Of a DNA stretch of 64,000 nt, positions 1,306 to 2,286 are shown piece after piece. Within the stretch, counting starts at the first letter, position 1; every line of letters begins with the position of its first letter. Source of the stretch: Haplodiscus bocki (taxonomy: Eukaryota); the NCBI GenBank assembly GCA_965655095.1, contig OZ296651.1, forward strand, positions 32,984,001 to 33,048,000, read 5' to 3'. Both the position numbers and the translations under genes were made by a program. The notes under the pieces were generated by a model that was not told the DNA's origin, did not search any database, and saw only the letters and a program-made list of their open reading frames with translations.

Positions 1306-2286
1306 TTATCTTATAATCTGCCTGGTGATGCTTCTGCTGCCAGTGCCCAGCTTGGCTGATTTGCATTTTTGATTGACACAAACACTAACCACAACCGTCA
1401 GTGCAACGCCAATTCTACCAGTCTCCTGTTTTACATGCAAAGGTTGAGAAAAAACACAGTTTTCTAGCCCCCGCCTCCACTGTTTGGACGCCGCCAAAAC
1501 CTTTTCAGCGTTGGCCGTTAACACCGAGCCCATGGATTGTGATATGCCTCCTTACATACCATGATCTGTATCACCTCCCGTCTCACCTGACCTTTTCGGA
1601 TTCGGCATGCTGACATCGCCATTGCGGACTTCCTTCGTCTGGTGTTACACCAATTGTTTGAAAGATCTAGAATTTGCAGCACTGCTAAGGAAAAACGAGG
1701 CCATTGAAAATTTTGAACAGGCATGGAGGGACATTCTGAAAAAAAAGGGCTCCCGAAAAGCGTTTTTTTGCAGATTAGAACGCGCTTTTGACAAGCAAAA
1801 ACAGATTTAAGAGAAAACTTTTCCATCACTGGATGTGAAGCATCGGAGAAAAATATTGTTGACCGTCACCTTTCAGACATGGAAGACACCATCTCCGACT
1901 CAAAAAAACGGTTGATCTCCTGAAATGGGACTAGCATGCCCGCCCCATATTTCATCAGTTTTTCTTCCATCTGATCTGCCCTGACATCGTTTATATGGAT
2001 AAAATTACACTTCCTGTACAAAGTTTTAGTGTCCTACCGCCACACATCAGACGCAGTTCTCAAGAAGAGTTATTTGACATTAATGCACCTCTACTATCCT
2101 GACAGCCATCGCGAAGTTGTTCGCAAACTATCACTGCAACTTTTTGCCATTCACAACATTTTGGAGAACCCCATCGTCACTCAAAAGATATACGATTTTT
2201 CGGCCCTCGCGCGAAAGATTCGTGCCACTTCTGTCGCCTTTGAACACCCAGCCACGGTATGAATCCTTGGATGACCTTTGGAACTA
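1306..2286 (+). pseudogene. Accessory ORF4: coiled-coil region plus C-terminal DnaJ-type J-domain (J-domain ~2011-2196)
   Basis: Frame of 2029 reads FLYKVLVSYRHTSDAVLKKSYLTLMHLYYPDSHREVVRKLSLQLFAIHNILENPIVTQKIYD, matching the J-domain pattern Y.VLG....S...IKK.Y..L...YHPD.....Y.IL.DP..R..YD (YPD at 2095-2103 for HPD); homologous to 34610-35575. Confidence 0.75.

Follow-up and report, generated by a model that had tools for sequence, protein, structure and literature searches.

A clade of env-bearing Ty3/Gypsy elements in Haplodiscus bocki carries a true accessory gene, here called ORF4, which lies between env and the 3' LTR and encodes a J-domain with the HPD motif. Such a gene had been proposed in a preliminary description of the stretch of DNA under study (64,000 nucleotides, hereafter the window), and the proposal is borne out by Pfam matches, the predicted fold, the conservation of HPD, selection and the position of the gene within LTR-bounded, env-bearing elements. 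Specifically, ORF4 types A, B and F match the Pfam DnaJ profile above its cut-off, the structure model has a J fold (Z 9.3), natural open copies are under purifying selection by dN/dS, and the gene sits inside LTR pairs; none of the contrary outcomes named beforehand (no J-domain match, no HPD, neutrality, a position outside the LTRs) arose. ORF4 is almost certainly a selected gene.

Two decayed copies and their young relatives

The window holds two copies of the element (Table 1), and the order env, ORF4, LTR that had been reported for them is true of both. Copy 1 is a 3' end whose 5' LTR lies ~9.7 kb ahead of window base 1, with an LTR pair that is 72% alike and a target duplication of 4 bp (GTAT); copy 2 is complete but decayed (33969-45620, minus strand). 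The remains of ORF4 in copy 1 are spread over three frames with frameshifts and many stops (tblastn E 1e-35 and 6e-22), and the 3' LTR of this copy has lost the AT|GT donor motif described below. The translation of 2011-2196 is as first described and sits within an open stretch (1984-2259), and its suspected relation to Pfam DnaJ is real as a match (E 2.4e-4), but at 21.6 bits it stays under the 27.8 cut-off. Similarly, the coiled coil noted ahead of the J-domain is present in ORF4, but in copy 1 it sits in other frames. In copy 2, ORF4 shares 62% amino-acid identity with young type B and has an acceptor CAG|G upstream. The motif codons had been read correctly, as TAT CCT GAC (Y-P-D) in copy 1 and CAT CAC AAC (H-H-N, immediately preceded by a stop) in copy 2. 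However, the two copies belong to different types (copy 2 shares 78.7% with type B, and copy 1 reaches no more than 64%, with type A) and thus a consensus of the two is by itself no valid argument for HPD; that the gene has HPD holds on other grounds, namely the presence of the motif in young copies and in eight types of the gene.

Table 1. Features of the two copies in the window; loci outside the window are given with their own handles.
Feature	Position	Strand	Basis or remark
Copy 1, 3' end of an old LTR element	1-2989	+	rest upstream of window
Copy 1 env, 3' part, broken	2-836	+	tblastn with natural env
Copy 1 pyrimidine tract + CAG, remnant of ORF4 splice acceptor	1292-1305	+	an acceptor is conserved at this place in young copies
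Copy 1 ORF4 pseudogene (barrel, linker, coiled coil, J-domain, tail)	1306-2281	+	tblastn pieces
Copy 1 J-domain remnant, motif Y-P-D	2011-2196	+	Pfam PF00226 E 2.4e-4, below cut-off
Copy 1 3' LTR, left end approximate	2352-2989	+	LTR alignment
Copy 2 3' LTR, aligned part, AT|GTTAGT donor motif retained	33969-34492	-	sequence
Copy 2 ORF4, type B, one frame, three stops	34605-35573	-	tblastn
Copy 2 env, broken	35927-38224	-	tblastn; env of young copy matches Baculo_F
Copy 2 pol, broken: protease, RT, RNase H, macro-like domain, integrase	38413-42813	-	Pfam, tblastn
Macro-like domain of pol	window ~39870-40110; L140:3821-8758, residues 910-971	- (window)	Pfam
Copy 2 gag, broken, with zinc knuckle	42792-43701	-	Pfam, tblastn
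Copy 2 leader ORF c remnant	43803-44093	-	tblastn E 3e-33
Copy 2 leader ORF b remnant	44144-44278	-	tblastn E 8e-11
Copy 2 leader ORF a remnant	44414-44711	-	tblastn E 2e-18
Leader ORFs	window 43803-44711; L103:3068-4040; L140:1788-2751; L172-L174	- (window)	sequence comparison
Copy 2 5' LTR, aligned part	45099-45620	-	75% like own 3' LTR; TGG-type primer-site remnant next to it

Searches of the 1.5 Gb genome assembly gave 41 matches at the DNA level, some with an open ORF4 frame of 339-360 codons and LTRs up to 99.8% alike, and at least 129, 142, 137 and 126 matches in the protein searches. While many ORF4 copies in the genome are broken, young natural copies have an open ORF4 of 310-360 codons between env and the 3' LTR, with LTR pairs up to 99.5-100% alike (99.8-100% over the stretch compared in types F, H, I and J). 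Eight types of the gene (A, B, C, F, G, H, I and J) can be distinguished, and all eight representatives keep HPD, at pairwise identities of 26-69%, as well as a C/H-C-G...C-x-x-C tail. HPD is also found in 31 of 36 distinct, short loci with a long open frame (45 rows, 9 of which duplicate a place already counted); in type G the frame is open in 12 of 15 loci, 11 of these 12 having HPD. As the loci were best search matches, these shares lean to young copies. In scans with PF00226, young-copy ORF4 matched with E 5e-12 and 3e-14, and types A, B and F scored 46.1, 53.3 and 33.0 bits, as against the cut-off of 27.8 that the relatives P0119, P0135 and P0176 also exceed; below it fall type C (24.6, an HLD copy), P0152 (24.8), P0086 (26.1) and P0113 (18.2), with types G, I and J left out of the scan.

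By every feature tested the element is an env-bearing Ty3/Gypsy (Metaviridae) element. According to Pfam it has the order gag (CCHC), pol (protease, RT, RNase H, macro-like domain, integrase), env and ORF4, and in the RT-RNase H region it is 35-51% identical to named relatives and at least 65% identical to other relatives. LTRs measure 550-630 nt in types A, B, C and F and are longer in H-J, a target duplication of 4 bp (as in copy 1) accompanies four of the five young copies examined, and TGGTGACAG, a possible tRNA primer-binding site, comes after the 5' LTR of types A, B, F, H and J (it was not found in I). The env protein has 778 residues, and one of the two scanned matches Baculo_F above cut-off (E 4.5e-7); the other, 97% identical to it, gave no match. 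The macro-like domain between RNase H and integrase reaches E 6e-6 with Pfam Macro in family F and is weak in A, and no counterpart was found in the open-licence PMC and bioRxiv literature. Between the 5' LTR and gag, types A and F have three small ORFs starting with ATG (143-149, 74-76 and 97-99 residues), which are 40-43% identical between the two types without DNA similarity (pS > 0.7, with pN far below pS). They encode a Cys/His protein, a peptide that combines a PP/PSxY-like motif with a single hydrophobic helix, and a third protein of 97-99 residues; a similar membrane peptide together with a Cys protein exists in I and J, and the peptide only in H. Pfam returned nothing for five of six leader proteins and a weak DC_STAMP match for one. 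The PP/PSxY-like motif might have a late-domain role.

Among the types that bear ORF4, RT-RNase H is 72-100% alike (the pol of type G being outside this comparison), and the RT and ORF4 trees concur in setting (A,B,C),F against (H,J),I, which fits a single old capture as far as trees can tell. The gene is probably present in other genomes too, since the best matches in this genome to two database proteins used as queries are just 57% and 45% identical. A profile search of 1.84 billion proteins retrieved full-length relatives of ORF4, followed by ordinary J-domains; a metagenome scan with the ORF4 alignment gave 115 pattern matches, of which 0 were confirmed.

The protein consists of a small SH3-like barrel, a linker, a coiled coil, the HPD J-domain and a Cys-rich tail. 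In the structure model (mean pLDDT 67, pTM 0.33) these appear as a four-strand domain (residues 15-52), a disordered Pro/Ser linker, a single helix (112-221), a four-helix J-domain (236-298) and a low-confidence C-terminal tail. The J helices span 236-240, 249-263, 273-287 and 289-298, with HPD at 264-266 between helices II and III, and the fold resembles ERdj5 (Z 9.3, rmsd 1.9, 72 aligned) and Ydj1 (Z 9.1); by sequence, J-domains like that of DNAJA1 come closest among solved proteins (E 1e-8). Helix II departs from the canonical pattern in types G-J, where its Tyr and most of its basic residues are gone, judging from alignments with solved J-domains. There is no DnaJ_C match and the J-domain lies near the C-terminus, so by sequence the layout is that of a class C J-domain protein, not of a class A/B DnaJ (Hsp40). 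Chance J-like helices, as another source of the signal, are ruled out by the Pfam scores, the fold match and HPD across the eight types.

The barrel, folded alone, is again SH3-like (pLDDT 78) and its fold matches are tied at Z 6-7.3 (Spt5 KOW 7.3, TDRD3 Tudor 7.0, NusG 6.9); for such a common fold, matches at this level name neither a family nor a client, and its aromatic residues are not kept in an alignment of distant relatives. Foldseek gave no match at E <= 0.001 for the model of the whole protein or of the barrel, and the best ESM Atlas values (0.80 for the whole protein, 0.92 for the barrel) were to clusters with low recognition that offer no lead. Neither a signal sequence nor a membrane segment is evident in the ORF4 sequences or model, which points to the cytosol or nucleus as the location of the product.

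Expression signals, selection and exchange

A usable ATG is mostly absent from ORF4, to the extent that the first Met of types A, G, H and J is found inside or past the barrel, and genes of this kind are therefore easily missed in the DNA frame. However, 11 of 12 representatives have TGTT(T/C)CAG|G just upstream of the barrel, with AG at codon positions 1-2, the twelfth being the commonest B form, which has AG|A with its own ATG directly behind. Likewise, 11 of 12 representatives, in seven different sequence contexts, have a donor AT|GT[AGT]AG 3' of the ORF4 stop, which falls in the LTR wherever its bounds are known (F2 is the exception, its motif being changed). By resampling, the motif would occur by chance in 1.5-7% of such regions, and six stretches of the elements contain it 1-5 times in every 10 kb of sense strand. 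When the AT of the LTR is joined to the G of the acceptor, an in-frame ATG for ORF4 results, and it is very likely, on these signals, that ORF4 is spliced with a start codon made at the junction. The env genes of H, I and J have the same in-phase acceptor ahead of the hydrophobic leader, with no Met before that leader in J; those of A and F have their own ATG. A splice-made start of a downstream gene has a parallel in Drosophila gypsy, where the env start is supplied by a spliced ATGT, going by part of PMC8096092. When contigs from four runs of one study were aligned to an env-deleted copy, no GT..AG joint was seen among the 15 of 83 joints displayed, which speaks neither for nor against expression. 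As a side observation, the donor is present in every 3' and solo LTR of all types, from which splicing to host exons further downstream could give these a start codon.

Pairwise dN/dS (Nei-Gojobori, natural open copies) of ORF4 is 0.13 for A1-A2, 0.16 for B1-B2, 0.05 for F1-F2, 0.29 for C1-C2 and 0.28-0.41 for pairs involving A3, next to 0.11 for env of A1-A2; type G pairs have pN 0.025 as against pS 0.10-0.11. Between types synonymous sites are saturated and dN/dS only bounds the ratio. ORF4 diverges much faster than RT-RNase H, and among A, B and C the identity is 77-78% in the barrel, 70-85% in the tail, 44-64% in the coil and 49-71% in the J-domain. Positive selection is not shown by pairwise dN/dS, and the pattern is one of fast divergence under constraint.

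The gene is moreover exchanged between elements. ORF4 of types A, B and C, at 54-70% identity and with saturated synonymous sites, resides on one near-identical gag-pol-env backbone, and is thus a swappable cassette. Between A and B, dS is 0.006 in pol and 0 in env, as against a pS of 0.77 and 57% identity in ORF4. At the DNA level the two are 99-100% identical until just before the acceptor, 41-71% identical through ORF4 and the initial 460 nt of the LTR, and again 99% identical over the last 96 nt of the LTR, so that ORF4 and most of the LTR were exchanged as a block. Cassettes of type A as well as of type B are also found on an env-deleted backbone, with a pol dS of 0.024 between the two, and therefore exchange occurred more than once. 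The type of ORF4 goes with that of the LTR in 29 of 30 A and 23 of 25 B copies; however, the LTR is wholly of type A in 10 of 12 copies of type C, which rules out a strict pairing of each ORF4 with its own LTR, and one A copy and one B copy bear the LTR of the other.

Most of env is missing from five LTR-bounded loci among 19 upstream loci compared, and from one in F (one further env-less locus was left out, its 5' LTR not being in reach). ORF4 is open in three of these six copies, including young ones in types A, B and F, and broken in the other three. The young env-deleted lineages L032, L107, L146 and L137 (types A, B and F) have LTR pairs that are 99.5-99.8% alike. Reverse transcription of a spliced RNA as the origin of the deletion was rejected because of a 7-nt microhomology at the type A junction. 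Separately, the flanks of the type B copies L049/L153 and L046/L149 are repeated outside the LTR (over 1357 and 724 nt, at least 99% alike), which suggests tandem or duplicated insertions.

Candidate functions of the ORF4 product

J-domains with HPD trigger Hsp70 on clients that are picked by the other domains of the protein. Polyomavirus T antigens use a J-domain, and T antigen together with Hsp70 dismantles Rb-E2F. Judging from the model, whose J fold is plain, and from the activity of the family, ORF4 is likely to encode a working Hsp70 co-chaperone; the degenerate helix II of types G-J and the relatives below the Pfam cut-off count against this. Should it be one, a client of the host is somewhat the likelier kind.

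The prediction that is favoured here, tentatively and a little short of an even call, is that the product directs the Hsp70 of the host to a host complex by which the element is restricted. ORF4 would be made from a fully spliced subgenomic RNA, in which a short non-coding exon from the 5' LTR, ending in AT, and the acceptor G form the start codon. The resulting class C J-domain protein, in the cytosol or nucleus, would select its client by the KOW/Tudor-like barrel (perhaps with the Cys tail), oligomerise and be spaced by the 110-residue coiled coil, and make host Hsp70 hydrolyse ATP and clamp the client by its HPD J-domain. That client would most likely be a silencing or RNA-retention complex, to be taken apart by Hsp70 in the way of T antigen and Rb-E2F. 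Since one set of Gag, Pol and Env is served by widely differing ORF4 types, and since these types are not tied to one LTR, the variable partner is more likely to be the host's, and the near-identical backbone of A, B and C makes a type-specific element protein an unlikely one. A host-directed role is also favoured by the faster divergence of ORF4 than of RT-RNase H and by its retention in young env-deleted copies; host J-proteins and Hsp70 do act in the silencing of transposable elements (SILENZIO; part of PMC8616336). On the other hand, the broken ORF4 of three of the six env-deleted copies counts against it, and the old cassettes can also be explained, without an arms race, by one backbone that swept through older lineages. 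More broadly, it is possible, if doubtful, that these elements are a clade of complex invertebrate retroviruses with at most seven genes, which would combine a targeted Hsp70 co-chaperone of their own that dismantles an anti-transposon complex, ancient interchangeable cassettes and a single splice-made ATG from the LTR for both env and ORF4.

Other roles can be envisaged. The donor in the LTR would turn the whole of gag-pol into an intron, and ORF4 could be imagined as a Rev/CERV-like regulator that binds the unspliced genome via barrel or Cys tail and has Hsp70 remove factors of splicing or retention, which would allow the export of gag-pol RNA. The CERV protein of Cer1 is itself an accessory protein from a spliced mRNA whose coiled coils and Cys loop are needed for export (according to part of PMC10309623). 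The top matches of the barrel (the KOW domains of Spt5 and NusG), the better conservation of barrel and tail among A, B and C, and the exchange of ORF4 and most of the LTR as a block agree with such a regulator as well, but ORF4 and LTR types come apart (in 10 of the 12 copies of type C and in a single copy each of A and B), and this role is regarded as unlikely.

Hsp70 has established roles in virus assembly, and DNA viruses carry J proteins (BFVD matches); a chaperone of the particle, which would recruit Hsp70 to Gag or to the integration complex and so aid capsid assembly, uncoating or entry into the nucleus, would be needed with or without env, as its retention in env-deleted copies allows. 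However, ORF4 types only ~55% alike serve near-identical Gag and Pol, and related Gypsy elements replicate on gag-pol-env alone (part of PMC13524379), leaving this a distinctly unlikely role. The degenerate helix II of G-J and the low Pfam scores of some relatives would suit a decoy or interaction module that binds and ties up Hsp70, or competes with a J-protein of the host, but does not deliver clients productively, an improbable case given that HPD is kept in all eight types even as identity drops to 26%.

Among the capsid, Env-folding and host-manipulation roles proposed initially, Env folding is the weakest, since neither a hydrophobic signal nor a membrane segment can be discerned and three of six env-deleted copies keep ORF4 open. 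A helper of this kind, or a host DnaJ gene taken up as a neutral passenger, would explain why ORF4 adjoins env in every family seen and why many copies are broken, but with dN/dS well under 1 (the neutral case is largely refuted) and ORF4 retained in families that share 72-79% in RT-RNase H and fall into matching groups in the RT and ORF4 trees, both are highly improbable.

Known systems and other features of the window

Polyomavirus T antigens are J-domain proteins of a DNA virus comparable to ORF4. The virus J-domain proteins matched in BFVD (phage, giant-virus and baculovirus BJDP) are likewise products of genetic parasites in which other domains are joined to a J-domain, but these are all from DNA viruses and the likeness is confined to the J-domain. 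No retroelement-encoded J-domain gene was found among the open-licence PMC and bioRxiv papers searched. If there is no earlier case, ORF4 would be a J-domain gene in a reverse-transcribing element and would extend Hsp70 hijacking from DNA viruses to retroelements. To our knowledge, few protein counter-defences of animal transposons have been described. A soluble adaptor of 330 residues, with HPD as an on/off motif and with natural variants, makes it directly testable, by pull-down, which host complex has to be remodelled for an LTR element, and the swappable cassette and the leader genes speak of retrovirus-style genome complexity arising in Metaviridae.

Among the closest known systems are the errantiviruses (env-carrying Ty3/Gypsy elements), which share the LTR, gag, a PR-RT-RH-IN pol, an F-like env and many near-identical copies; the present elements differ in the extra gene after env, two to three small genes before gag and the macro-like domain of pol (part of PMC13524379). 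In the portions of that source covered, the main text makes no mention of a chaperone, J domain, extra ORF or macro, nor the supplementary files of DnaJ, ORF4 or a J-domain. CERV of C. elegans Cer1 resembles ORF4 as a Gypsy accessory protein from a spliced mRNA with coiled coils, flexible linkers and a Cys-rich part but, compared by description, has H, M and G domains and no mention of a chaperone where ORF4 has an HPD J-domain (part of PMC10309623). Bdelloid rotifer LTR elements have captured a 3' ORF3 (GDSL, DEDDy, TM, coiled coil), reportedly expressed from spliced messages, which is a third gene, unlike ORF4 that follows env; the part of PMC5408684 concerned does not mention DnaJ or ORF4. 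The Tor elements of Oikopleura are also env-bearing and Gypsy-like invertebrate elements, with env of Tor3a spliced from the 5' LTR, but they use a donor near the gag start or an internal env promoter, unlike the LTR donor of the ORF4 elements (part of PMC4402516, whose main text, in that part, mentions no DnaJ, ORF4 or additional ORF).

Apart from the two copies, the window contains a ~15 kb palindrome (8734-24072) with arms 89-99% complementary and tandem arrays of 28, 30 and 31 bp; five long frames in or near it have no Pfam match at E 0.001. Inverted repeats that are 70-77% alike (46609-47091 and 59813-60306) flank an AT-rich stretch of 13 kb, perhaps an old DNA transposon, whose ORFs have no clear Pfam match. 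Elsewhere in the genome, a type A insertion adjoins a host exon-like frame (L021:2611-3156), which may resemble a cation-chloride cotransporter.
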